Assembly (NCBI RefSeq): GCF_055900595.2
Contig: NZ_CM148325.1
Length of the DNA: 64,000 nucleotides
Reading direction: 5' to 3' (one strand)
Positions 19,923-42,858 of this stretch are shown in pieces. The translations under genes were made by a program, and so were the position numbers. The notes beneath the pieces are model-generated. The model had not been told where the DNA came from. It did not search any database and worked only from the letters and a program-made list of their open reading frames with translations. Position 1 is the stretch's first letter. Each line of letters begins with the position of its first letter.

Positions 19923-21320
19923 ATGAAAATGGTCTCACGTATTACCGCGATCGGCCTGGCTGGCGTCGCGATTTGCTATTTAGGGTTATCTGGTTATGTG
20001 TGGTACCACGATAATAAACGCAGTAAACAGGCCGATGTTCAGGCATCTGCTGTCAGTGAAAATAATCAGGTTTTAGGTTTTCTTCGCGAAAAAGGATGCG
20101 ACTATTGTCATACGCCTTCGGCAGAATTACCCGCCTATTATTATATTCCTGGCGCGAAACAGTTGATGGATTACGACATTAAGCTTGGATATAAATCTTT
20201 TAACCTCGAGGCCGTGCGTGCGGCTCTGTTGGCAGATAAACCCGTTTCGCAAAGCGATCTGAATAAGATTGAATGGGTGATGCAGTATGAAACTATGCCA
20301 CCAACGCGTTATACCGCGCTACACTGGGCGGGTAAGGTGAGTGATGAAGAGCGGGCGGAAATACTTGCCTGGATTGCAAAACAGCGCGCGGAATATTACG
20401 CCAGTAATGATACTGCTCCGGAGCATCGCAATGAACCGGTGCAGCCTATTCCGCAAAAACTACCTACCGATGCGCAAAAAGTGGCGTTGGGTTTTGCGCT
20501 GTATCATGATCCCCGTTTATCGGCTGATAGCACCATTTCATGTGCACATTGCCATGCGTTAAATGCGGGTGGCGTTGATGGTAGAAAAACGTCGATTGGT
20601 GTTGGTGGTGCCGTTGGGCCGATTAACGCACCAACGGTCTTTAACTCAGTATTTAACGTTGAGCAGTTCTGGGATGGTCGTGCGGCAACATTGCAGGATC
20701 AGGCGGGTGGACCGCCGTTGAACCCGATTGAAATGGCGTCGAAATCCTGGGACGAAATTATTGCTAAGCTGGAAAAAGATCCGCAGCTTAAAGCGCAGTT
20801 CCTCGAAGTCTATCCGCAAGGTTTCAGTGGCGAAAATATTACTGATGCTATTGCTGAATTTGAGAAAACATTAATTACGCCGGATTCCCCATTTGATAAA
20901 TGGTTGCGTGGAGATGAGAATGCGCTGACGGTGCAACAGAAAAAAGGCTATCAATTATTTAAAGATAATAAATGTGCAACTTGTCATGGTGGTATTATTC
21001 TCGGCGGACGTTCTTTCGAGCCGTTGGGGCTGAAAAAAGACTTTAACTTTGGTGAAATTACGGCGGCGGATATTGGTCGTATGAATGTTACTAAAGAAGA
21101 GCGTGATAAATTGCGTCAGAAAGTACCCGGTTTACGTAACGTTGCTTTAACGGCACCGTACTTCCATCGCGGTGACGTGCCGACGCTGGACGGGGCGGTA
21201 AAACTGATGCTGCGCTATCAGGTAGGCAAAGAGCTGCCGCAGGAGGATGTGGATGATATCGTAGCTTTCCTGCACAGTCTGAACGGGGTATATACGCCGT
21301 ATATGCAGGATAAACAATAA
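19923..21320 (+). CDS. yhjA: Di-haem cytochrome c peroxidase YhjA (Ccp), 465 aa
   Basis: Translation recognised as YhjA; haem-binding CxxCH motifs present (CAHCH, CATCH). Confidence 0.95.
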   Translation: MKMVSRITAIGLAGVAICYLGLSGYVWYHDNKRSKQADVQASAVSENNQVLGFLREKGCDYCHTPSAELPAYYYIPGAKQLMDYDIKLGYKSFNLEAVRAALLADKPVSQSDLNKIEWVMQYETMPPTRYTALHWAGKVSDEERAEILAWIAKQRAEYYASNDTAPEHRNEPVQPIPQKLPTDAQKVALGFALYHDPRLSADSTISCAHCHALNAGGVDGRKTSIGVGGAVGPINAPTVFNSVFNVEQFWDGRAATLQDQAGGPPLNPIEMASKSWDEIIAKLEKDPQLKAQFLEVYPQGFSGENITDAIAEFEKTLITPDSPFDKWLRGDENALTVQQKKGYQLFKDNKCATCHGGIILGGRSFEPLGLKKDFNFGEITAADIGRMNVTKEERDKLRQKVPGLRNVALTAPYFHRGDVPTLDGAVKLMLRYQVGKELPQEDVDDIVAFLHSLNGVYTPYMQDKQ

Positions 21321-21330
21321 TTAATTTGAT

Positions 21331-21363
21331 CGCCCAAACAGGAATGTTTGGGCGATTTTTATT
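21331..21363 (+). terminator. Rho-independent terminator of yhjA
   Basis: CGCCCAAACA-GGAA-TGTTTGGGCG hairpin followed by ATTTTTATT. Confidence 0.8.
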
Positions 21364-21431
21364 ACGACAATAAAGTCTGTTTTTAATATTATCATGTTAA
21401 ATGTTTATATTATAAAAAGTCGTTTTTCTGC

Positions 21432-21451
21432 TTAGGATTTTGTTATTTAAA
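21432..21451 (+). promoter_or_regulatory. GAD box (GadE/GadX/GadW binding element) upstream of gadA
   Basis: TTAGGATTTTGTTATTTAAA is the 20-bp GAD box as I recall it, about 80 bp upstream of the gadA ATG. Confidence 0.8.
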
Positions 21452-21530
21452 TTAAGCCTGTAATGCCTTGCTTCCATTGCGGATAAATCCTACTTTTTTA
21501 TTGCCTTCAAATAAATTTAAGGAGTTCGAA

Positions 21531-22931
21531 ATGGACCAGAAGCTGTTAACGGATTTCCGCTCAGAACTACTCGATTCACGTTTTGGCGCAAAGGCCATTT
21601 CTACTATCGCGGAGTCAAAACGATTTCCGCTGCACGAAATGCGTGATGATGTCGCATTCCAGATTATCAATGATGAATTATATCTTGATGGCAACGCTCG
21701 TCAGAACCTGGCCACTTTCTGCCAGACCTGGGACGACGAAAACGTCCATAAATTGATGGATTTGTCGATCAACAAAAACTGGATCGACAAAGAAGAATAT
21801 CCGCAATCTGCAGCTATCGACCTGCGTTGCGTAAACATGGTTGCTGACCTGTGGCATGCGCCTGCGCCAAAAAACGGTCAGGCCGTTGGCACCAACACCA
21901 TTGGCTCTTCCGAGGCCTGTATGCTCGGCGGGATGGCGATGAAATGGCGTTGGCGCAAGCGTATGGAAGCCGCAGGCAAGCCAACGGATAAACCTAATCT
22001 GGTGTGCGGCCCGGTACAAATCTGCTGGCATAAATTCGCCCGTTACTGGGATGTGGAGCTGCGTGAAATCCCTATGCGCCCCGGTCAGTTGTTTATGGAT
22101 CCGAAACGCATGATTGAAGCCTGCGACGAAAACACCATCGGCGTGGTGCCGACTTTCGGCGTGACCTACACCGGTAACTATGAATTCCCGCAACCGCTGC
22201 ATGATGCACTGGATAAATTCCAGGCCGACACCGGTATCGACATCGACATGCACATCGACGCCGCCAGCGGTGGCTTCCTGGCACCGTTCGTTGCCCCGGA
22301 TATCGTCTGGGACTTCCGCCTGCCACGTGTGAAATCGATCAGTGCTTCAGGCCACAAATTCGGTCTGGCTCCGCTGGGCTGCGGCTGGGTTATCTGGCGT
22401 GACGAAGAAGCGCTGCCGCAGGAACTGGTATTCAACGTTGACTACCTCGGTGGTCAGATTGGCACTTTCGCCATCAACTTCTCCCGTCCGGCGGGCCAGG
22501 TAATTGCACAGTACTACGAGTTCTTGCGCCTCGGTCGTGAAGGCTATACCAAAGTACAGAACGCTTCCTACCAGGTAGCTGCCTATCTGGCAGATGAAAT
22601 CGCCAAACTGGGGCCGTATGAGTTCATCTGTACGGGTCGCCCGGACGAAGGCATCCCGGCGGTTTGCTTCAAACTGAAAGATGGTGAAGATCCGGGATAC
22701 ACCCTGTATGACCTCTCTGAACGTCTGCGTCTGCGCGGCTGGCAGGTTCCGGCTTTCACTCTCGGCGGTGAAGCCACCGACATCGTGGTGATGCGCATTA
22801 TGTGCCGTCGTGGCTTCGAAATGGACTTTGCTGAACTGTTACTGGAAGACTACAAAGCCTCCCTGAAATACCTCAGCGATCACCCGAAACTGCAGGGTAT
22901 AGCCCAGCAGAACAGCTTTAAACACACCTGA
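21531..22931 (+). CDS. gadA: Glutamate decarboxylase alpha (GadA), PLP-dependent, 466 aa
   Basis: Translation from [44 protein letters not shown] recognised as GadA/GadB; assigned gadA by position next to gadX. AGGAG Shine-Dalgarno precedes the ATG; the six-frame ORF starts 21 codons upstream. Confidence 0.93.
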
Positions 22932-23299: not shown

Positions 23300-24124
23300 A
23301 TGCAATCACTACATGGTAATTGTCTAATTGCGTACGCAAGACATAAATATATTCTCACCATGGTTAATGGTGAATATCGCTATTTTAATGGCGGTGAACT
23401 GGTTTTTGCGGATGCAAGTCAAATTCAAGTGGATAAGTGTGTCGAGAATTTTGTATTAGTTTCAAGGGACACGCTTTCATTATTTCTCCCGATGCTCAAG
23501 GAGGAGGCATTAAATCTTCATGCACATAAAAAAGTTCCTTCGTTACTCGTTCATCACTGTACCAGAGATATTCCTGTTTTTCAGGAGGTTGCGCAACTAT
23601 CGCAGAATAAGAATCTGCGCTATGCAGAAATGCTCCGTAAAAGAGCATTAATCTTTGCGTTGTTATCTGTTTTCCTGGAGGACGAGCAGTTTATACCGCT
23701 GCTTCTGAACGTTTTGCAACCGAACATGCGAACACGAGTTTGTACGGTCATCAATAATAATATCGCCCATGAGTGGACATTAGCCCAAATCGCCAGCGAG
23801 CTGTTGATGAGTTCAAGCCTGTTAAAGAAAAAATTGCGCGAAGAAGGTACGTCATATTCACAGTTGCTTACTGAGTGTAGAATGCAACGTGCTTTGCAAC
23901 TTATTGTTATACATGGTTTTTCAATTAAGCGAGTTGCAGTGTCCTGTGGTTATCACAGCGTGTCGTATTTCATTTACGTTTTTCGAAATTATTATGGGAT
24001 GACGCCCACAGAGTATCAGGAGCGATCGGCACAAGGATTGCCGAACCGTGACTCGGCGGCAAGTATTGTTGCGCAAGGGAATTTTTACGGTACTAACTAT
24101 TCTGCGGAAGAAATAAGATTATAG
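23300..24124 (+). CDS. gadX: AraC-family acid-resistance regulator GadX, 274 aa
   Basis: Translation recognised as GadX. Confidence 0.95.
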   Translation: MQSLHGNCLIAYARHKYILTMVNGEYRYFNGGELVFADASQIQVDKCVENFVLVSRDTLSLFLPMLKEEALNLHAHKKVPSLLVHHCTRDIPVFQEVAQLSQNKNLRYAEMLRKRALIFALLSVFLEDEQFIPLLLNVLQPNMRTRVCTVINNNIAHEWTLAQIASELLMSSSLLKKKLREEGTSYSQLLTECRMQRALQLIVIHGFSIKRVAVSCGYHSVSYFIYVFRNYYGMTPTEYQERSAQGLPNRDSAASIVAQGNFYGTNYSAEEIRL

Positions 24125-24139
24125 TTTTTACCCAGACAT

Positions 24140-24245
24140 AAAAAAAACCCGGCATAGGGGACCGGGAAGAGGATAGTCTGCCGTCTCCAGACTAATAAAC
24201 CGTTATAACACTCCCTGTTGGCACGGGAAACTTTGTGCTCTCAGT
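24140..24245 (-). ncRNA. gadY: GadY small RNA (antisense to the gadX 3' end, Hfq-dependent)
   Basis: Minus-strand sequence ACTGAGAGCACAAAGTTTCCCGTGCCAACAGGGAGTGTTATAACGGTTTATTAGTCTGGAGACGGCAGACTATCCTCTTCCCGGTCCCCTATGCCGGGTTTTTTTT matches GadY as recalled, with a terminal hairpin and U-tract; ends approximate. Confidence 0.8.
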
Positions 24246-24491
24246 AAGTTAAATATAACTTTTACTGGAGATAAGATCAGCCATTTTTTTATAAACATAA
24301 GCTATGCGCTGTGTGAAAATATATTCTTCTTGCATTTTCTTATTATCAATTAACTGTTATGTCAAACTACTTTTTGGATAACTTTTGGTCCTACCAAATA
24401 TGGCAGTTTATGCACGAAGAAGCGGTCTGGCATCATTTCATTAGTATACTGAAATTGAAATAATCGCAGTAATGAAATATAAGGGATAGTC

Positions 24492-25220
24492 ATGACTCAT
24501 GTCTGCTCGGTGATCCTCGTTCGTCGTTCATTGGATATTCATCATGAACAGCAAAAAATATCGTTGCACAACGAAAGTATTCTACTGCTGGATAAAAATT
24601 TGGCAGACGATTTTGCGTTTTGTTCACCGGATACACGACGACTGGATATCGATGAGCTGACAGTTTGCCATTACTTACAAAATATTCGTCAGTTACCGCG
24701 CAATTTAGGGTTACATAGCAAAGACCGTTTGTTAATTAACCAGTCCCCCCCCATGCCTCTGGTGACGGCGATTTTTGATAGTTTCAATGAATCCGGGGTA
24801 AATTCGCCGATAATGAGCAAGATGCTTTACCTTTCCTGTTTATCAATGTTTTCTCATAAGAAAGAACTTATCCCCTTACTTTTCAATAGTATCAGTACTG
24901 TTTCAGGAAAAGTTGAACGCCTTATTAGCTTTGATATCGCTAAACGTTGGTATCTACGCGATATCGCGGAAAGAATGTATACCAGCGAGAGTCTCATCAA
25001 AAAAAAGTTGCAGGATGAAAATACCTGTTTCAGTAAAATATTACTCGCCTCCAGGATGTCGATGGCCAGACGATTACTCGAGTTACGTCAAATTCCTCTA
25101 CATACTATTGCAGAAAAATGTGGGTATAGCAGTACGTCGTACTTTATAAACACATTTCGACAATATTATGGTGTAACGCCACATCAGTTTGCGCAACATT
25201 CGCCAGGTACCTTTTCCTGA
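24492..25220 (+). CDS. gadW: AraC-family acid-resistance regulator GadW, 242 aa
   Basis: Translation recognised as GadW. Confidence 0.95.
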   Translation: MTHVCSVILVRRSLDIHHEQQKISLHNESILLLDKNLADDFAFCSPDTRRLDIDELTVCHYLQNIRQLPRNLGLHSKDRLLINQSPPMPLVTAIFDSFNESGVNSPIMSKMLYLSCLSMFSHKKELIPLLFNSISTVSGKVERLISFDIAKRWYLRDIAERMYTSESLIKKKLQDENTCFSKILLASRMSMARRLLELRQIPLHTIAEKCGYSSTSYFINTFRQYYGVTPHQFAQHSPGTFS

Positions 25221-29878: not shown

Positions 29879-30216
29879 TTTAGTCCCTGAAAATTCTTGA
29901 GATATAACGGTTCTTTAAATTGCGCGCGAGGAGAGGTATGAGGGATTTACAGACCAGCGGCATAGTGGGGTTGTCAGCCAGTAAGATGGGATGCAAGCAC
30001 AGTGATCGACATGGTGAGGTCAACGACAAAAAAAATGTTGCCGTTCTGCCAACAGTTCCTGCCAGCATTCGGGCAACGAAGGGTTCTACTGGTGGATACA
30101 CATACCAGGGGAATAAAGTCGTTTTCGCCTCTCCTTTAGTCATCACCGGGGATAATGAAATCAGCATCTGCATCCCTCTTCATGCCTGCCATCATTTTCA
30201 GTTAATTATGTCCTGA

Positions 30217-30744
30217 CTAAAAATAAGATGTGATACCCAGGGTGACGATGTCGCTCATACGTCTTAGTTTCAGCTTGTACATAATGTTGAATTTCTGAAT
30301 CTTTAATGTTTGTTGCGAAATATTGAGCGTTGACGTGATATTGCTTTCGTTTTTGTTTTTCAGAATCAGCTGCATAATTTTGAACTGATTATGTGAAAAA
30401 CATAATTGTGAATTCTTATGGGGCAAGTGTTTACCATAAGTAATCTCAAGAAGATTTTTGATACTTTCTTTGCGGCTGACAAAATAAATAGGCGCTTTAG
30501 CTTTTAGTTTACTGATGTGATAAGGTGCCAAAACAATAATTCTCTCGGCGTCTAATTTCTCCAGAAATTTAATCGCTTCTTCATCAAGGATATGGTTGTG
30601 ATAGGTATCAATGATAACCTTGAAGGGTTTATTACCTACTTTTTTGATCTCTGACAGGGAATTGATTTTTATCATTTCGTGATTATCTTTCAACTGCCAA
30701 AAGCCCTGTAAAAGAAAAGAATCTTTCGTCATGAGAAAAATCAT
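30217..30744 (-). CDS. gadE: LuxR-family acid-resistance master regulator GadE, 175 aa
   Basis: Translation from MIFLMTKDSFLLQGFWQLKDNHEMIKINSLSEIKK recognised as GadE; the six-frame ORF runs 26 codons upstream. Confidence 0.92.
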   Translation of the reverse strand: MIFLMTKDSFLLQGFWQLKDNHEMIKINSLSEIKKVGNKPFKVIIDTYHNHILDEEAIKFLEKLDAERIIVLAPYHISKLKAKAPIYFVSRKESIKNLLEITYGKHLPHKNSQLCFSHNQFKIMQLILKNKNESNITSTLNISQQTLKIQKFNIMYKLKLRRMSDIVTLGITSYF

Positions 30745-31542
30745 AACTTGCTCCTTAGCCGTTATCGTTTCGAACATGTCATCCTTTTCATTATTTACAT
30801 CCCTGTCCGAATCGTTGTTCAATATAGTAAACGCCTATAAGAACCTTGCCCTTCGTGAACTAATACGTCTATTAACACTAATCAATACTTCAGATTTATC
30901 CATCACGCACTCCATATATTGATCCTAAGTAAAATTCCTGGTTGTTATCAGATTGTAAACTGCAAGCAAAAAATTAACGTTTGCGGATTACTGCCCAAGA
31001 ATAAGTTATCAATAACCAGTTTGTGATCTCTGAAGAATATTACTAAAGTTAAAATGTAATCCGATTTAAATATCGAGTCTCCTTGTTTCGACTTAAGCTG
31101 GCAATTGGATTGCCAGCTTTCTTTTAACGCATTGAAATTACCTGAGTAAATAACTCATTCATGTCTTCAGGTTTTTATATAGCGTCTGGAGACACGGATA
31201 TTTATGCAATGTAATCAACGCCAGTTGCAAAAAAATGAACCCGGATTACTTATTTAACCGCCCATAGCATCAACGTTTACGGAACTCTTTGTTCACTTTC
31301 CCACAGCACTTTTAAAACATTAAACCTGACTACGGAAAATATCAGCCATGATAATGTTTGAAATGGCTAATTTGCCATGCAATGAAAAAAATCAGATAAA
31401 ATTCAGTAGGTTGAAATACTCATCAGCAGGTAATTATTTCAATGATAGCGCGCAATTGATCTAAAATGCTGTGTAGCGGAGAGAGTATTAATTGGATCAT
31501 AGTCACATCAAGTGACTATGATCCAGGTGGCAATAGGGATAA
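30745..31542 (-). promoter_or_regulatory. Extended gadE upstream regulatory region (multiple promoters and long 5' UTRs)
   Basis: About 800 bp of AT-rich non-coding DNA between hdeD and gadE, matching the known large gadE control region; individual sites not resolved by eye. Confidence 0.5.
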
Positions 31543-32115: not shown

Positions 32116-32369
32116 AGAACCACCCTATAAAATTAAGAAGAAAATCCCCTGCTATCAATCTATGCCAAAAACGCGTCTAAGAATGCAGTCGATTTAATAA
32201 AAATTTCCTAATTACAGTATCAGATGCATCTGTAACTCATTGTATTGAAATAAAAATATCTGATTTTGATATTTTCCATCAACATGACATATACAGAAAA
32301 CCAGGTTATAACCTCAGTGTCGAAATTGATTCGTGACGGCTCTTTCACTTTATAGTTGAGGATATTACG

Positions 32370-33875: not shown

Positions 33876-33909
33876 CAGGAGTACCAGAGCGGTACTCCTG
33901 TTGGTTTTA
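33876..33909 (+). terminator. Terminator hairpin between yhiD and chuV (convergent)
   Basis: CAGGAGTACC-AGAGC-GGTACTCCTG followed by TTGGTTTT. Confidence 0.7.
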
Positions 33910-34677
33910 ATGATCGAGGACGATCAGTGGTGAATGGTTGGCAGGATCTTTAAGTACGGTAATATTCGCGCCGTAGAGCATTGTCAGCGCCTGCTGTGTC
34001 AATACGTCCTGCGGTTTACCATTTGCGATAACCTTTCCTTTTTGCATTAATACAACACGGTCTGCATAACGCGCGGCAAGATTTAGATCGTGCAATACGC
34101 AGCAAACATTGAACTGCCGTTCGTGAACTAGCTGGCGTAATAAACGAAACAAGTGCTGCTGATGGTGAATATCCAGCGCCGAAGTTGGTTCATCAAGAAA
34201 TAACCATTTCGGTGAGGGAGTTGGTTCCCAGAGTTGCACCAGCAGGCGCGCTAATTGCACGCGCTGTTGTTCACCACCGGATAATTGCCGATAGTCGCGG
34301 TTTGCTAACGCCTGACAGTCACATAACGCCATTATTTGTGCTGTTTCATTATCCTGATTACCAGTACGATGCGGATGCCGCCCCATCTGGATAACTTCTT
34401 GTACGCTGAATGGAAACGCCATGTGGCTATTTTGACGCATCACGGCCCGGTGTTTCGCCAGTTCAGTAATCGACCATTCATTTAATGGCTTATTAAACAA
34501 CCGACATTCGCCGCTATCAGGTTGAAGATAGCCGGTTAACTGGCGAAGCAGCGTAGATTTTCCCGCACCATTAGGGCCGAGAATGGCAACAATTTCCCCA
34601 CCGGGAAAAGTCAGCGAGACATTATCAGTCAGACGCCGCCCCTGAAGGCTATAAACCAGATTCTGGGCGCTGATCAT
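33907..34677 (-). CDS. chuV: Haemin ABC transporter ATP-binding protein ChuV (HmuV), 256 aa
   Basis: Walker A (GPNGAGKST), ABC signature (LSGGEQQR), Walker B ([11 protein letters not shown]); matches ChuV/ShuV. The ATG overlaps the chuU stop (ATGA); the six-frame ORF runs 51 codons upstream. Confidence 0.92.
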
Positions 34678-35666
34678 GTGATCCTCCGGTTGCGCAGAAT
34701 CAACCACATAAAATAAGGGCCACCAAGCAGGCTGGTTAATAATCCCACGGGCATTTCTGCTGGCTGTACCAGTGTGCGGGCAAGCGTGTCTGCCATCAGC
34801 AATAAACAGGCTCCGGCGAGGGCGGAGCAAGGGATTAGCCAGCGGTGATTTGCCCCGGTAGTCATACGAATCAGATGCGGGATCACCAGGCCAATAAAGC
34901 CGATAATGCCGCTTACCGATACGGCGGCACCAACGAGCAGTGAGCTCACTAACAGTAATTGCTGGCGTTTACGCTTAACGTTCACGCCGAGGTAGTGGGC
35001 TTCTTCATCACCGAGCTGCAGTAAATTCAGCGTTCCGGCGAGACAAGTTGTTGCAATAATGGCCGGTAGGATGAATGAACTGGCAACCAATAACGTCGGC
35101 CATTGCGCCTGTCCAAGATTGCCCATCATCCACAATGTGAGTTGTCGTAGCTGCTGCTCATCGCCGATATAGCTCAGGATGCCGATCGCTGCGCCGCACA
35201 GGGCATTGATGGCGATACCGGCGAGTAATAATTGCATCATGCTGCCATCGCGATGGCGCTGCGTGATGAGAAAAATGATGGTGCAGACCACTAAACTTCC
35301 GGCAATGGCAAACACCATTTGCTCATAGAGCACCAGCACCACTGGGAAGGAAAAGGGCAGCACAATAGCAACGCCAACCATTAATGCAGAACCGCTACTG
35401 ACGCCGAGTAATCCAGGGTCAGCCATTGGGTTGCGAAAAAGCCCCTGCATAATTACCCCGGCGGTTGCCAACGCTGCACCTACCAGCACCGCCAGCAAAA
35501 CCCGTGGTAGACGAATATTGAGCCAGATATCGCGGTATTCCTCATCAAAAAGGGCATCAAAACTGATCTTTAACGCTCCCTGACTGGCACCGAACAGCAC
35601 CAGAGCTAGCAATAATAGTGATAGCCCCATAAAGACCCTGGCGGAAGAGAGTGAATCCTTGAGCAC
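34674..35666 (-). CDS. chuU: Haemin ABC transporter permease ChuU (FecCD family), 330 aa
   Basis: Translation recognised as ChuU/HmuU; polytopic membrane protein. Confidence 0.93.
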
Positions 35667-35714
35667 GCAAAACTCCGTTACGACATTACGGCGCGGAGAT
35701 TCCGCGCCGGGGGA

Positions 35715-36338
35715 TCACGCCGGTTTCAGGTCCGGTTCAATCAGACTGTAGACCTGCTGGTTAAGTGCTGGCGCATTTGCCAGTTCATGGATATGTGCGG
35801 CGACATCGGCACGGTTAACAAAACCATGACACTCCTGATTTTGTATCCGTTGTGCTTTGCCCGTTGCCGCACCATCAAGCAGACCGCCAGGGCGGAGAAT
35901 GGCGTAATCAAGCTGGCTGGTTTGCAACCAGCTTTCCGCCAGCGTTTTTTCCCGTACCGCCTGACCAAACGCAGCCTTTGCCCGCTCCGATAAAAACGGC
36001 CAGCTATCGCCACATCCCAAAGAGGTCACCAGAATCATGCGACTGATGCCGGCCTTTTCGGCCTCATCAATCACTGTTCTGTGTGCCAGATAATCCTGAG
36101 CTCCGCCCATTGTTGAGATGATAAGCGCATCCGGGCCAGCTGCGCGGCAAGCAGCCGCGACTACGCTGGCATCACAGGCGTCGCCTGTAAAAACCTGTAC
36201 GCCTTGTTGCGCCAGTTTCGTGGCGGCATCAGCATGACGAATGACAGCAACGACCGGACGTTGTTCCGCCAGCGCCAGTTCAAGCGTTCTGGCACCCACA
36301 CCTTTTCCGCCTGCGCCAAAGAGTAGCCACGGCGTCAT
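35715..36338 (-). CDS. chuY: ChuY, NAD(P)-binding reductase of the haem utilisation locus (anaerobilin reductase), 207 aa
   Basis: N-terminal Rossmann-type glycine-rich motif (LLFGAGGKGVGART); matches ChuY. Confidence 0.9.
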   Translation of the reverse strand: MTPWLLFGAGGKGVGARTLELALAEQRPVVAVIRHADAATKLAQQGVQVFTGDACDASVVAAACRAAGPDALIISTMGGAQDYLAHRTVIDEAEKAGISRMILVTSLGCGDSWPFLSERAKAAFGQAVREKTLAESWLQTSQLDYAILRPGGLLDGAATGKAQRIQNQECHGFVNRADVAAHIHELANAPALNQQVYSLIEPDLKPA

Positions 36339-36832
36339 CAGGCGTGTTCCTTTAACGATGCTGCCAGAGCATGGAAGGCGCTGACTTGTTCGCTCAGGAG
36401 CTGACGATGGTCATCCCTGCCGAGGAAGATTTTCAGCATTGCGCTGCCTTCTTTGTTGAAAAAGAGAATGGATGCGGTGTCCATGCCCATAAATTTACGT
36501 TCGATCAAGGCAATATGTGTGCAGTTTTCTGCTTTGATATGCCCGGACATGCCGTGCTTTCCGCGTAGGTTGAAATAGCCGTGGCGATGGAAACCCGAAG
36601 GCAGTTCGCCGCTAAATTCGAGGATTACATCGGCAGTATGTACTAACGTGGTGACGTTGCCCCATTCGCAGACGGTATCCCAGACAGTATCGAATTTATC
36701 GCCTGACACTACGGTAGAGGAGGGTAGATTTCTCACTACTTCCAGCAGTGTGGTGTTGTATTGTTCGGCTACCACCTCCAGCGTACCGTCCGGCTCCGTT
36801 TTCAAAAATTCTTGTAACGAGACATGGCTCAT
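36338..36832 (-). CDS. chuX: ChuX, cytoplasmic haem-binding protein, 164 aa
   Basis: Translation recognised as ChuX; its stop overlaps the chuY start. Confidence 0.9.
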   Translation of the reverse strand: MSHVSLQEFLKTEPDGTLEVVAEQYNTTLLEVVRNLPSSTVVSGDKFDTVWDTVCEWGNVTTLVHTADVILEFSGELPSGFHRHGYFNLRGKHGMSGHIKAENCTHIALIERKFMGMDTASILFFNKEGSAMLKIFLGRDDHRQLLSEQVSAFHALAASLKEHA

Positions 36833-36844
36833 AAATCACTCCTG

Positions 36845-38182
36845 TTATGGTTTTTCACGCACAATCGTTGGCGCATTAAGTGCCTGAATTAGTTCATTAA
36901 GAGACTGCAAAATATTGCTTGCCCAGAAACGACCTTCATTAGTCAGCCGCAGGCAAGTTGAAGCATCGCGGCTTAAGCCTTTTTGGTGCCATTGAGCCAG
37001 TAACGGCGCGAGTTTTTCGGCATGTGGCGTAAGTTCATCCAGCGGTACACGCGCTGTTTCAACACCTGACTGCAAGGTATGACGCCATTGCGCATTACGT
37101 TCGGCGTTACGCATGATCATCATCAGCGGTTTTTTGCCTGCCGCGACGGATTCATGCCAGGTCTGAAGACTGCGTTCGTTCATCCAGGAGTAACCATTAA
37201 TCGAACCGCCGGCTCCGGAACCAAAGGCCAGACAATCGGCACCTTGTTTAATCAGCAGGTTATAGAGATTGCGTTCGCGTGTGGTACGGCCCCAGTGGCT
37301 GTTACTGATACAGCGCCAACCAGCTTCGTCCATGAAGTCACACCCTTGCAGATAAAGATCGCGTCGTTCTGCCGGAGAGGGCACGGTAGTACGCCCATTT
37401 TCCACGGCTTTGCCCAGCGGTGTATTGGGCAGGACATTGAGCGCATAGAGATCGACGCCGTCGAGACCGATATCGCGGGCAATAGTCAGATCTTCTCCCC
37501 AGGTTTGCGCATCCTGACCCGGCAGGCCAAACAGAAGGTCACAGACCACCGCAGCACGGTCGCGTTTGACCAGGCTTTCCATAAACGCAATGGCGGTTGG
37601 GCCATCCGAGGTGCGGGCCATTTTCTTACGGATTTTGCTGTTAAACGACTGAATACCAATTGAGAAGCGGTTTGCTCCTGCATCAAGGCAAGCATCGATT
37701 CGCTCAGCGTCAAAATTCAGTACCCGGCCTTCGATAGTGATTTCACAATCAGGGGCCAGTGGCAGCTTTTCTCGTAATGTGGTGATAATTCTGGCCAAAT
37801 CGTGTGCCGAAAGCGCGGAAGGCGTGCCGCCACCGAAATAGACCGCGTGGATGGGGGCAGACTGATGCAATACGCTGTCCGCTTCCATTTCTATTTCACG
37901 AATCAGGGCGTCGGTATAATGAGCACACGCATCTTCATTAAAACGGTTCTGATAAAAACCACAAAACGTGCAGTGTGTTGCACAAAAAGGAATGTGTAGA
38001 TAAACCAGTCGCTTACGTGGTGATACCGTTTGATTGAGCATCTCTTGCCAGGTCTGTGCCAGTTGCTCTTTGGCAACTGGAATGGCCCCACGAAACGGCA
38101 TCATGGCGCGCCTGTCTTTAAATGGCTGATCACCGTCTAAAGCAAAATGTGGCGTGAGATCCAGGGGGTTATTTGTGTTCAT
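36845..38182 (-). CDS. chuW: ChuW, radical SAM haem-degrading methyltransferase (HemN-like; anaerobilin synthase), 445 aa
   Basis: Radical SAM CxxxCxxC motif (CATHCTFCGF) and HemN-like architecture; matches ChuW. Confidence 0.92.
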   Translation of the reverse strand: MNTNNPLDLTPHFALDGDQPFKDRRAMMPFRGAIPVAKEQLAQTWQEMLNQTVSPRKRLVYLHIPFCATHCTFCGFYQNRFNEDACAHYTDALIREIEMEADSVLHQSAPIHAVYFGGGTPSALSAHDLARIITTLREKLPLAPDCEITIEGRVLNFDAERIDACLDAGANRFSIGIQSFNSKIRKKMARTSDGPTAIAFMESLVKRDRAAVVCDLLFGLPGQDAQTWGEDLTIARDIGLDGVDLYALNVLPNTPLGKAVENGRTTVPSPAERRDLYLQGCDFMDEAGWRCISNSHWGRTTRERNLYNLLIKQGADCLAFGSGAGGSINGYSWMNERSLQTWHESVAAGKKPLMMIMRNAERNAQWRHTLQSGVETARVPLDELTPHAEKLAPLLAQWHQKGLSRDASTCLRLTNEGRFWASNILQSLNELIQALNAPTIVREKP

Positions 38183-38201
38183 TCGTCTGATTTAAATCCA
38201 T

Positions 38202-39116
38202 TTATTGTGGCCAAAGCTGCTGGTGTAAAGACTCAACGACATCAGCAATACGCGGACCCATTCCCAGAATCAGGTTTTGATCAACGGTGATAATGCGCTG
38301 GTTTTTCCATGCGGCAGTGTGGGTAATTCCGGCAATAGAACGTAGCCGGTTAATATCGCCATCGACCATTTGTGAGGTTACGACAATCACTTCTGGATTA
38401 GCCGCAATCAGTGATTCTGCACTGTAGCTTTTGTACTGCTGGTGGGTTGCGACGTTTTCTGCTCCGGCAAGCGAAAGAATGGCGTCCGCGACGCTGCCTT
38501 TACCGGCAACCTGTGGCGCACTTCCGCCTGCGGAGAGAATAAACATGGCTTTAACCGGGGCTTTTTTGGCCGCCACGTTTTGCTGTACTCGCTCCAGGCG
38601 TTGGTTGATCTGTGTCACCAGCGCCTCGCCTTGTTCAGGAACCTGTAGCGTTTTTGCCAGTTGGCGAATGTTGGCGTACATCTGCTCAAGGGTGGCAGGC
38701 ACACGCGGCAGGGTGACGACGTTGACTTTCTGCGCTCGTAGTTGGTCGAGCACAATTTGTGGCCCGGCATCCTGCCAGGTAATTACGCTATCCGGGCGAA
38801 GTGACAAAATGCCTTCGCTGCTGAGTTGTTTCCAGTAGCCAATATGCGGCAGTTTGGCGGTTTCTGGTGGATAAGATGTCGTTTCATCGACACCAACCAC
38901 GCGTTCGCCAGCGCCCATCGCGTAGATTAGCTCCGTCAGCGATCCTCCTGCGACCACGATACGTTCGGCAGCCGTTACGCTAAAAGCCCAGCTAAGAGCC
39001 AGTACTGCCGTAAACAATTTTTTTCGTTTTACCGCGGTCTTCGCGGCAGAGGCCACGGCTGAAATACATAACGTCAGTGGGGAAAAAAGAAACGGCCTGG
39101 TGATGATCCTTGGCAT
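38202..39116 (-). CDS. chuT: ChuT, periplasmic haem-binding protein of the ABC importer, about 304 aa
   Basis: Translation recognised as ChuT/ShuT. Start set at MPRIITR because the longer six-frame ORF would place the Fur box inside the coding sequence; exact start uncertain. Confidence 0.85.
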   Translation of the reverse strand: MPRIITRPFLFSPLTLCISAVASAAKTAVKRKKLFTAVLALSWAFSVTAAERIVVAGGSLTELIYAMGAGERVVGVDETTSYPPETAKLPHIGYWKQLSSEGILSLRPDSVITWQDAGPQIVLDQLRAQKVNVVTLPRVPATLEQMYANIRQLAKTLQVPEQGEALVTQINQRLERVQQNVAAKKAPVKAMFILSAGGSAPQVAGKGSVADAILSLAGAENVATHQQYKSYSAESLIAANPEVIVVTSQMVDGDINRLRSIAGITHTAAWKNQRIITVDQNLILGMGPRIADVVESLHQQLWPQ

Positions 39117-39140
39117 AATATGAGAACTCTTATCAAATTG

Positions 39141-39161
39141 AGAATGATCATGATTATCATT
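39141..39161. promoter_or_regulatory. Fur box at the chuT promoter
   Basis: AGAATGATCATGATTATCATT closely matches the Fur consensus GATAATGATAATCATTATC, about 25 bp upstream of the chuT start. Confidence 0.7.
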
Positions 39162-39490
39162 TGAGTTATATATGAAATACAACCGTCGATTCAATACGCA
39201 AGGCGTTACAAGCGTATTTATTTTTGATTTTTATCAAGATGCTTCGTCAGCTAACGTTCTTGTTACCGACTAAATTTCAGCGCGGGAAAAAGCTGAGAAC
39301 CCAGAGATATCGCGGCTTGCAGAGCAAAGAGAAGAGAAAATTATCACTGTTAACGACAAAGTTTAGTGATGAGGTTATGGGGGAATAACCATAAAAACAA
39401 AGTGGTTTCCAGGGCGCAGGATAGGTTTCATAACCCCCTGTTTATTGTGTTAATGGCGGTTAAAAAAAGCTTGATCATAAAAAATTGATC

Positions 39491-39509
39491 GATAATAATT
39501 CTCATTATC
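39491..39509. promoter_or_regulatory. Fur box at the chuA promoter
   Basis: GATAATAATTCTCATTATC is a near-consensus Fur box about 290 bp upstream of the chuA ATG, implying a long 5' UTR. Confidence 0.7.
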
Positions 39510-39798
39510 ACGTTCGCGCTTAACAAAACACGACCATATGGATAACAAAACCATAGCATTTGCAAGGGATAACGCACAGCGCTCTTCACTCCTGATGGGG
39601 CATATCGTTTTGCCTGATAAAGAGGGCGTGCTTTTGCGTATTTGCCGAGATACCAGGCAATTTCATGGGATATAAACGCCTGTAAACTCACCCGGCGAAT
39701 ATTATCGCTCTGAATTTTAAATAAATTTATTTCTCGCAAGCCACCCCGGTATTAACCCAGGCAGCCAGCATTTTTTATTTTCCTCATGGAGAATCGCT

Positions 39799-41781
39799 AT
39801 GTCACGTCCGCAATTTACCTCGTTGCGTTTGAGTTTGTTGGCTTTGGCTGTTTCTGCCACCTTGCCAACGTTTGCTTTTGCTACTGAAACCATGACCATT
39901 ACGGCAACGGGGAATGCCCGTAGTTCCTTCGAAGCGCCTATGATGGTCAGCGTCATCGACACTTCCGCTCCTGAAAATCAAACGGCTACTTCAGCCACCG
40001 ATCTGCTGCGTCATGTTCCTGGAATTACTCTTGATGGTACCGGACGAACCAACGGTCAGGATGTAAATATGCGTGGCTATGATCATCGCGGCGTGCTGGT
40101 TCTTGTCGATGGTGTTCGCCAGGGAACGGATACCGGACACCTGAATGGTACTTTTCTCGATCCGGCGCTGATCAAGCGTGTTGAGATTGTTCGCGGACCT
40201 TCAGCATTACTGTATGGCAGTGGCGCGCTGGGTGGGGTGATCTCCTACGATACGGTCGATGCAAAAGATTTATTGCAGGAAGGACAAAGTAGTGGTTTTC
40301 GTGTCTTTGGTACTGGTGGCACGGGGGACCATAGCCTGGGATTAGGCGCGAGCGCGTTTGGGCGAACTGAAAATCTGGATGGTATTGTGGCCTGGTCCAG
40401 TCGCGATCGGGGTGATTTACGCCAGAGCAATGGTGAAACCGCGCCGAATGACGAGTCCATTAATAACATGCTGGCGAAAGGGACCTGGCAAATTGATTCA
40501 GCCCAGTCTCTGAGCGGTTTAGTGCGTTACTACAACAACGACGCGCGTGAACCAAAAAATCCGCAGACCGTTGAGGCTTCTGAAAGCAGCAACCCGATGG
40601 TTGATCGTTCAACAATTCAACGCGATGCGCAGCTTTCTTATAAACTCGCCCCGCAGGGCAACGACTGGTTAAATGCAGATGCAAAAATTTACTGGTCGGA
40701 AGTCCGTATTAATGCGCAAAACACGGGGAGTTCCGGCGAGTATCGTGAACAGATAACAAAAGGAGCCAGGCTGGAGAACCGTTCCACTCTATTTGCCGAC
40801 AGTTTCGCTTCTCACTTACTGACATATGGCGGTGAGTATTATCGTCAGGAACAACATCCGGGCGGCGCGACGACGGGCTTTCCGCAAGCAAAAATCGATT
40901 TTAGCTCTGGCTGGCTACAGGATGAGATCACCTTACGCGATCTGCCGATTACCCTGCTTGGCGGAACCCGCTATGACAGTTATCACGGTAGCAGCGACGG
41001 CTACAAAGATGTTGATGCTGACAAATGGTCATCTCGTGCGGGGATGACTATCAACCCGACCAACTGGCTGATGTTATTTGGCTCATATGCCCAGGCATTC
41101 CGCGCCCCGACGATGGGCGAAATGTATAACGATTCTAAGCACTTCTCGATTGGTAGCTTCTATACCAACTATTGGGTGCCAAACCCGAACTTACGTCCGG
41201 AAACTAACGAAACTCAGGAGTACGGTTTTGGGCTGCGTTTTGATGACCTGATGTTGTCCAATGATGCCCTGGAATTTAAAGCCAGCTACTTTGATACCAA
41301 AGCGAAGGATTACATCTCCACGACTGTCGATTTCGCGGCTGCGACAACTATGTCGTATAACGTCCCGAACGCCAAAATCTGGGGCTGGGATGTGATGACG
41401 AAATATACCACTGATCTGTTTAGCCTTGATGTGGCCTATAACCGTACCCGCGGCAAAGACACCGATACCGGGGAATATATTTCCAGTATTAACCCGGATA
41501 CCGTTACCAGCACCCTGAATATTCCGATCGCTCACAGTGGCTTCTCTGTTGGTTGGGTCGGTACGTTTGCCGATCGCTCAACACATATCAGCAGCAGTTA
41601 CAGCAAACAACCTGGCTATGGTGTGAATGATTTCTACGTCAGTTATCAAGGGCAGCAGGCGCTCAAAGGTATGACCACTACTCTGGTATTGGGCAACGCC
41701 TTCGACAAAGAGTACTGGTCGCCGCAAGGCATCCCACAGGATGGTCGTAACGGAAAAATTTTCGTGAGTTATCAATGGTAA
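39799..41781 (+). CDS. chuA: ChuA, TonB-dependent outer-membrane haem/haemoglobin receptor, 660 aa
   Basis: Translation recognised as ChuA/ShuA; signal peptide, TonB-box region, C-terminal aromatic terminus (SYQW). Confidence 0.95.
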   Translation: MSRPQFTSLRLSLLALAVSATLPTFAFATETMTITATGNARSSFEAPMMVSVIDTSAPENQTATSATDLLRHVPGITLDGTGRTNGQDVNMRGYDHRGVLVLVDGVRQGTDTGHLNGTFLDPALIKRVEIVRGPSALLYGSGALGGVISYDTVDAKDLLQEGQSSGFRVFGTGGTGDHSLGLGASAFGRTENLDGIVAWSSRDRGDLRQSNGETAPNDESINNMLAKGTWQIDSAQSLSGLVRYYNNDAREPKNPQTVEASESSNPMVDRSTIQRDAQLSYKLAPQGNDWLNADAKIYWSEVRINAQNTGSSGEYREQITKGARLENRSTLFADSFASHLLTYGGEYYRQEQHPGGATTGFPQAKIDFSSGWLQDEITLRDLPITLLGGTRYDSYHGSSDGYKDVDADKWSSRAGMTINPTNWLMLFGSYAQAFRAPTMGEMYNDSKHFSIGSFYTNYWVPNPNLRPETNETQEYGFGLRFDDLMLSNDALEFKASYFDTKAKDYISTTVDFAAATTMSYNVPNAKIWGWDVMTKYTTDLFSLDVAYNRTRGKDTDTGEYISSINPDTVTSTLNIPIAHSGFSVGWVGTFADRSTHISSSYSKQPGYGVNDFYVSYQGQQALKGMTTTLVLGNAFDKEYWSPQGIPQDGRNGKIFVSYQW

Positions 41782-41829
41782 TCATCTGCCCCGATATTTC
41801 GGGGCATTTATCTGGAAGGAAGAGAGACA

Positions 41830-42858
41830 ATGAACCACTACACACGCTGGCTTGAGTTAAAAGAACAAAATCCCGGAAAGTACGCGCGTGACATCGCAGG
41901 TTTAATGAATATTAGCGAAGCAGAACTGGCATTTGCGCGCGTCACGCACGATGCGTGGCGGATGTGCGGCGATATCCGTGACATTCTGGCGGCGCTCGAA
42001 AGTGTTGGCGAGACCAAATGTATTTGTCGTAATGAATATGCAGTCCATGAGCAAGTTGGTGCGTTCACAAACCAGCATTTAAACGGACATGCCGGATTGA
42101 TCCTCAATCCGCGCGCGCTGGATTTGCGTCTGTTTCTCAATCAATGGGCCAGTGTTTTCCACATCAAAGAAAATACGACTCGTGGCGAACGCCAGAGTAT
42201 TCAGTTCTTTGATCATCAGGGCGATGCATTACTAAAAGTTTATGCCACCGACAATACCGATATGGCGGCATGGAGTGAGCTTCTGGCACGGTTTATCACC
42301 GATGAGAATACGCCGCTTGAGTTAAAAGCCGTTGATGCGCCAGTTGTTCAAAAGCGAGCCGATGCCAGTGTGGTCGAGCAAGAGTGGCGGGCGATGACCG
42401 ACGTTCATCAGTTTTTTACGTTGCTCAAGCGCCACAACCTGACGCGCCAACAGGCGTTCAATCTGGTGGCAGATGATTTGGCCTGCAAAGTATCCAACAG
42501 TGCGTTGGCGCAAATTCTTGAATCTGCACAGCAGGATGGCAATGAAATCATGGTGTTTGTTGGCAACCGTGGCTGCGTACAGATTTTCACTGGCGTGGTA
42601 GAAAAAGTGGTGCCAATGAAAGGTTGGCTGAATATTTTTAACCCGACGTTTACTCTTCATCTATTAGAAGAGAGCATTGCTGAAACCTGGGTAACCCGTA
42701 AACCTGCTAGTGACGGTTATGTGACCAGTCTGGAATTGTTTGCCCATGATGGTACGCAGATAGCGCAACTTTATGGTCAACGTACAGAAGGCGAACAGGA
42801 GCAAGCGCAATGGCGTAAGCAAATTGCTTCGCTGATACCGGAAGGCGTTACTGCATAA
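41830..42858 (+). CDS. chuS: ChuS, haem oxygenase / haem degradation protein, 342 aa
   Basis: Translation recognised as ChuS/ShuS. Confidence 0.93.
   Translation: MNHYTRWLELKEQNPGKYARDIAGLMNISEAELAFARVTHDAWRMCGDIRDILAALESVGETKCICRNEYAVHEQVGAFTNQHLNGHAGLILNPRALDLRLFLNQWASVFHIKENTTRGERQSIQFFDHQGDALLKVYATDNTDMAAWSELLARFITDENTPLELKAVDAPVVQKRADASVVEQEWRAMTDVHQFFTLLKRHNLTRQQAFNLVADDLACKVSNSALAQILESAQQDGNEIMVFVGNRGCVQIFTGVVEKVVPMKGWLNIFNPTFTLHLLEESIAETWVTRKPASDGYVTSLELFAHDGTQIAQLYGQRTEGEQEQAQWRKQIASLIPEGVTA

Follow-up and report, generated by a model that had tools for sequence, protein, structure and literature searches.

The 20-mer TTAGGATTTTGTTATTTAAA, on the plus strand at 21432-21451 of the window (the whole stretch of 64,000 nucleotides analysed here, a segment of an E. 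coli chromosome in the reverse orientation of K-12), is by its sequence the well-known GAD box of the gadA promoter, an element already known and ordinary; with a probability of roughly 0.93, it would serve the gadA(-gadX) promoter of the acid fitness island as its upstream activator site, bound by GadE and RcsB as in K-12. The basis for this reading here is sequence, position, identity with K-12, conservation and an intact gadE; binding, the need for a heterodimer and the dependence on single bases of the box are taken from the K-12 literature, and by analogy the same GadE-RcsB binding and activation would be expected in the strain of the window.

An exact GAD box at this place, as claimed by a sequence-only reading of this DNA, is indeed present. 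It is the single match in the 64 kb on both strands, even when 3 mismatches are allowed (at this threshold, dinucleotide-preserving shuffles give 0.01 expected matches per window), and the next-best sites in the window share at most 15 of its 20 bases. It is identical to the box of the K-12 gadA promoter and to the characterised GadE site, which is printed as TTAGGAttTTgTTATTTAAa (PMC4918353). The comparison with the K-12 gadA promoter, which that reading had named as a check, extends this identity over the 140 nt that directly precede the gadA ATG at 21531. The complete ccp(yhjA)-gadA intergenic region (21321-21530, 210 bp) has a G+C content of 28.6%, against 49.4% for the window, and differs from K-12 by only three SNPs, two in the ccp terminator hairpin and one at 21367. 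The former lie in the intrinsic terminator of ccp (yhjA) found by a terminator scan at 21328-21357 (+), a 13-bp stem followed by a T-run; one of them replaces a G·T pair by A-T, hence the perfect 13-bp stem. At 21367, which lies at the edge of the GadX-occupied region, the window has C and K-12 has T.

The transcription start of gadA maps to 21504 (+), leaving a 27-nt leader, as fixed by the primers of PMC2887963 (gadAup (-101) falls at 21403 and gadAdown (+24) at 21527); the +1 implied by ChIP-exo distances lies at most 1 nt away. Relative to this start the box spans -72 to -53, with its centre at -62.5, and ends 16 bp upstream of the -35 element TTGCTT (21468-21473, +); in K-12, the 20-bp GAD box is likewise described as having its centre 63 bp before the start sites of gadA and gadBC and as lying 16 bp upstream of -35 (PMC2887963), and the placement asserted for gadA thus agrees with K-12. 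The -10 element TACTTT (21491-21496, +), assigned by its position relative to +1 and preceded by a C (cTACTTT, 21490-21496), is invariant among 11 aligned gad promoters, and the TTGC of the -35 element is kept in 11/11. Abutting the -10 element is the RcsB box GGATAAATCCTACT (~21481-21494, +, boundaries approximate), a low-affinity repressor site; it is described as lying just upstream of -10 and as differing between gadA and gadB by a G to C at its left end (PMC2887963), a difference that the alignments locate at 21481. A scan for the sigma-70 consensus does not pick up the mapped gadA promoter, which fits a weak, activator-dependent promoter. The same scan proposed three A+T-rich pseudo-promoters at ~21364-21416, which are rejected as the gadA promoter since the published +1, -35 and -10 lie at other positions.

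The box had also been said to be bound by GadE and GadX/GadW. Here the GadE part stands, with the qualification that GadE binds only with RcsB (footprinting, EMSA and ChIP-exo in K-12 point to a heterodimer of the two), and the GadX/GadW part does not, the motif and ChIP-exo peaks of these proteins lying upstream. In K-12, the GadE+RcsB heterodimer protects -76 to -50 from DNase I in vitro, equivalent to 21428-21454 (+) of the window through the 140-nt identity; MBP-GadE alone protected neither box, GadE alone giving no binding, a G-to-C change in the GAD box abolished both the complex and GadE-dependent activation, and the authors attributed earlier results with GadE alone to contamination by RcsB (PMC2887963). 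In vivo, GadE gives ChIP-exo peaks at -64 at gadA, with a weak signal (S/N 1.48), and at -62.5 at gadBC, and GadX gives peaks at -106 and -127.5 at gadA, where GadW has no peak in K-12 (PMC4918353, the GadE peaks from its Suppl. Table 1). In these published K-12 ChIP-exo data, no GadX/GadW occupancy is found over the GAD box (-72 to -53). Mapping onto the window uses a shift of +1977 that we assume between the coordinates of the ChIP-exo study and NC_000913.3; it places the GadE peak at ~21425-21453 and the GadX peaks at ~21366-21407. This shift brings the gadB box inside peak P3 and implies a +1 that is 1 nt from 21504.

Motif searches separate the two kinds of site in the same way. A GadX/GadW box has been given as AtGtcTGATtTttatattat (Tramonti et al. 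2006/2008, cited by PMC4918353). The GadX/GadW motif AKGKCTGWTWTTWWYMYVAK has three matches in the window at up to 2 mismatches, against 0.39 expected; the one in this region is AAGTCTGTTTTTAATATTAT at 21373-21392 (+), with 2 mismatches, at -131 to -112 and separate from the GAD box, which this motif does not match at up to 2 mismatches. The second match lies at 24265-24284 (-), beside GadY, and the third at 31330-31349 (-), in the long upstream region of gadE. Tramonti et al. reportedly described in 2006 a 44-bp site shared by GadX and GadW and centred at -110.5, which we take to fall at 21373-21416. The degenerate GadE ChIP-exo motif TTARGAWWWWAAATA says little here: with up to 2 mismatches allowed, it has four matches in the window where 2.9 would be expected, and the GAD box is not among them, because the spacing of this motif is compressed.

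That GadX and GadW, which are AraC-type regulators, (also) use the GAD box as an operator, binding it directly and in competition with GadE, is very unlikely, although Ma et al. are said to have reported in 2002 that regulation by GadX/GadW requires the GAD box. Such a dependence is explained by GadX/GadW acting through gadE, and both the motif match at 21373-21392 and the GadX peaks at -106 and -127.5 lie away from the box. Competition of GadX/GadW at the GAD box appears only in older work (2001-2002), as relayed in PMC6128205, whereas the model of 2010 keeps the GadXW box, the GAD box and the RcsB box apart as three elements (PMC2887963). By analogy with K-12, the GAD box should therefore read as a GadE-RcsB site, with GadX/GadW probably acting from the neighbouring upstream site and through gadE.

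On this GadE-RcsB reading, GadE, whose gene is 9 kb away in the window, would bind at -72 to -53 as a heterodimer with the response regulator RcsB, whose gene lies outside the window. From this class-I-like position the heterodimer would recruit RNA polymerase to the weak promoter or stabilise it there, through a presumed contact with the polymerase; glutamate decarboxylase would thus be switched on in acid or in stationary phase, and gadX would follow by read-through. GadX (in vitro also GadW) would act from the upstream site at about -106 to -131 and indirectly through gadE, and RcsB at high levels would repress through the second box abutting the -10 element. The genes concerned are present in the window: gadE (30217-30744, -) encodes a LuxR-type activator of 175 aa, its translation free of stops and the gene annotated in a near-identical strain; gadX (23300-24124, +; annotation and NF007432, E=1e-178) and gadW (24492-25220, +; annotation and AraC-family matches) encode full-length AraC-type regulators of 274 and 242 aa. 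With a standard K-12-type gadA promoter and an intact gadE, the strain of the window is expected to control its glutamate-dependent acid resistance in the way K-12 does; beyond annotation, this has little significance.

Between the gadA and gadB promoters, the box forms a 20/20 island in unrelated flanks, which share 11/40 identities upstream of it (chance level) and 2/16 in the spacer to -35. It is also invariant, between diverged flanks, in 11 aligned gadA-/gadB-type promoters from five Escherichia lineages, an invariance that is partly ascertainment, the cross-species loci having been retrieved by exact match. Within E. coli, whose genomes do not count as independent samples, 5,284 of 5,426 genomes have the exact 28-30-mer centred on the box, so that the box itself is exact in at least this number; in a 60-mer around it, by contrast, 1,922 of 5,411 genomes show one or more differences, so that most of the variation lies in the outer 30 bp. 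When 100,044 species genomes were scanned for exact matches, eight loci in Escherichia came up, five of gadA type and three of gadB type, in E. coli, E. albertii, E. whittamii and Escherichia sp. E1V33. Outside this genus, the scan gave three exact hits, all in MAGs of Lentisphaeria and Bacteroidales and none of them beside a gad gene. These three are rejected as homologues, given their lack of gad context and a number that is about that expected by chance for an A+T-rich 20-mer in 298 Gb. To judge from these alignments, the box appears to be conserved under selection relative to its flanks.

Such conservation could also be read as that of an H-NS nucleation site, the box being mainly part of an A+T-rich silencing tract; the low G+C content of the intergenic region (28.6%) is in line with this, as are the H-NS sites that the K-12 model places across the gadA regulatory region (PMC2887963). 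H-NS, however, binds degenerately and would have no need of 20/20 identity between paralogues and between species, and a single G-to-C change is enough to abolish GadE/RcsB binding and activation (PMC2887963), so that this explanation is very improbable.

The identity of the box in the two paralogous promoters bears directly on a further claim, that it supports gadA rather than gadB. The K-12 gadB promoter has a box identical to it in 20/20 positions and equally far from the ATG, three further Escherichia genomes likewise carry it 20/20 in their gadB-type promoters, and across 5,424 E. coli genomes an 80-nt probe containing it has a median of two matching places per genome; being identical at gadA and gadB, the box gives no support for one over the other, and this part of the sequence-only reading fails. 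Among the 10,658 places matching the box-containing 80-mer, six are on plasmids, pointing to plasmid-borne copies of a gad promoter in a few strains. The lesson for annotators is that gadA and gadB cannot be told apart by the GAD box, and that the GadX/GadW sites are to be treated as separate upstream elements.

The gene preceded by the box is nevertheless gadA, as had been proposed; the assignment is right on the grounds of synteny, of flanks that are not homologous to those of gadB and of the GadA-specific residues Q3, L5, L6, F9 and A22, the five diagnostic N-terminal positions at which it differs from K-12 GadB (Q3K, L5Q, L6V, F9L, A22S). The gene (21531-22931, +) encodes glutamate decarboxylase A, of 466 aa, with a protein 100% identical to K-12 GadA (TIGR01788, E=1e-208), and gadA is annotated in 5,400+ genomes. 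A 211-bp region is matched in 5,412 of 5,426 complete E. coli genomes and always adjoins gadA. The gene order of the window is treF, ccp (yhjA, 19923-21320), gadA, gadX, gadW, mdtF, mdtE, gadE, hdeD, hdeAB, yhiD, the chu/shu haem-uptake cluster, dctR and slp; strain Z0117EC0005 differs from the window at 8 positions in 40 kb. The gene body is of no use for telling the paralogues apart, since gadA and gadB evolve in concert, to judge from their sequences: within K-12 they differ by 31 nt, with 26 of these falling within the first 243 nt, compared with 51 differing sites, all synonymous, between the gadA genes of the window and of K-12.

Exchange between the paralogues also reaches the promoter in other strains. 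In 15 of 5,426 E. coli genomes, for example EC26 (NZ_CP196718.1, L016:2410-2634), the gadA promoter is chimeric: it is gadA-type through the GAD box, gadB-type for ~30 nt (the spacer, the -35 element and the RcsB box's left end, equivalent to 21452-21482 of the window), and then gadA-type again. The 15 genomes, mostly from pig and cattle isolates and including strain 1303, are probably one lineage. Judged by this mosaic, the chimeric promoter is a gadB-to-gadA gene-conversion tract with the GAD box as its left boundary; since it puts a gadB-type spacer and -35 element at gadA in these genomes, the spacer is not a fully reliable paralogue marker.

This tract, which starts at the box, and the concerted evolution of the two genes (31 nt against 51) are what speaks for the box being a 20-mer without a function of its own, left over from the gadA/gadB duplication and kept identical by gene conversion. 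That account is hardly credible: conversion would homogenise the flanks, yet these share only 2/16 positions after the box and 11/40 before it, mutation of the box abolishes activation in K-12 (PMC2887963), and GadE has its in vivo peak on the box (PMC4918353). Both the passive relic and the H-NS-only explanation are accordingly rejected, on the contrast between flanks and box and on the published point mutant, in favour of an activator site for GadE-RcsB.

A compatible but rather doubtful suggestion is that the invariant GAD box may in addition act as an upstream homology anchor for the exchange of the core-promoter module between gadB and gadA. If this were so, the promoters of the paralogues, besides their coding regions, would evolve in concert, with possible effects on GadX- and RcsB-dependent tuning; the suggestion concerns other strains, the window itself carrying the standard gadA promoter. 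A different variant occurs in KR2009 (NZ_CP040664.1, L017:1501-1661), where a 64-bp deletion between two ATAAA repeats, equivalent to ~21417-21480 of the window, removes the GAD box and the -35 element of gadA but spares the RcsB box, the -10 element and the gene; this may be a promoter knocked out in nature or a mistake in the assembly. Only the conversion tract of the 15 genomes and this deletion, both in other genomes, are new, and only mildly so.

Several further elements were observed elsewhere in the window. The best degenerate GAD-box-like site outside the gadA promoter is TTAGGAAATTTTTATTAAAT (15/20) at 32192-32211 (-), in the hdeD-hdeA intergenic region and in the orientation of hdeD; GadE ChIP-exo peaks have been reported for hdeD (-54) and for hdeAB (PMC4918353). 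The sRNA GadY (RF00122, 150 bits) is found at 24135-24248 (-), between gadX and gadW, and a match to the sRNA ES205 (RF02754, 105 bits) at 30028-30099 (-), directly downstream of gadE, between gadE and mdtE; the latter overlaps an annotation as 'hypothetical protein' that a near-identical strain has on the other strand (~29938-30216 of the window). The chu/shu haem-uptake cluster (~33907-42858; chuA, chuS, shuT, hutW, hutX, chuY, shuU and an ATPase) lies within the acid fitness island, with yhiD on one side and dctR on the other, and is absent from K-12; it contains a match to the RNA thermometer of the shuA/chuA 5'-UTR (RF02597) at 39770-39801. Two matches to AgrB-family antisense RNAs (RF02891, ~90 bits each), at 50045-50127 (-) and 50278-50362 (-), adjoin the dinQ type I toxin gene, upstream of arsRBC, and a borderline ES036/CssrF match lies at 59141-59181.

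Among known systems, the closest is K-12 gadA itself (b3517; Castanie-Cornet & Foster 2001; Castanie-Cornet et al. 2010, PMC2887963), which has the same box, distances and 140 nt, and the same neighbours as in the window, with ccp upstream and gadX and gadW downstream. The K-12 gadBC promoter (b1493) shares the 20-bp box, and its core promoter and leader are identical to those of gadA in the window at 50/63 positions; it differs in its neighbours, pqqL and gadC, in the five N-terminal residues of its protein, and in the binding of GadX, at -184 rather than at -106/-127.5 as at gadA (ChIP-exo, PMC4918353). The GadX/GadW box lies in the same intergenic region as the GAD box and feeds the same promoter, but it has another sequence and another place (21373-21392), and is bound by AraC-type proteins, not by GadE/RcsB. 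With the RcsB/RcsAB box, built of NarL/FixJ-type half-sites, the GAD box shares a resemblance in its left half, TTAGGA, to an RcsB half-site; the GAD box needs GadE as a partner and activates, whereas the RcsB box is bound by RcsB alone at high concentration and represses (PMC2887963).
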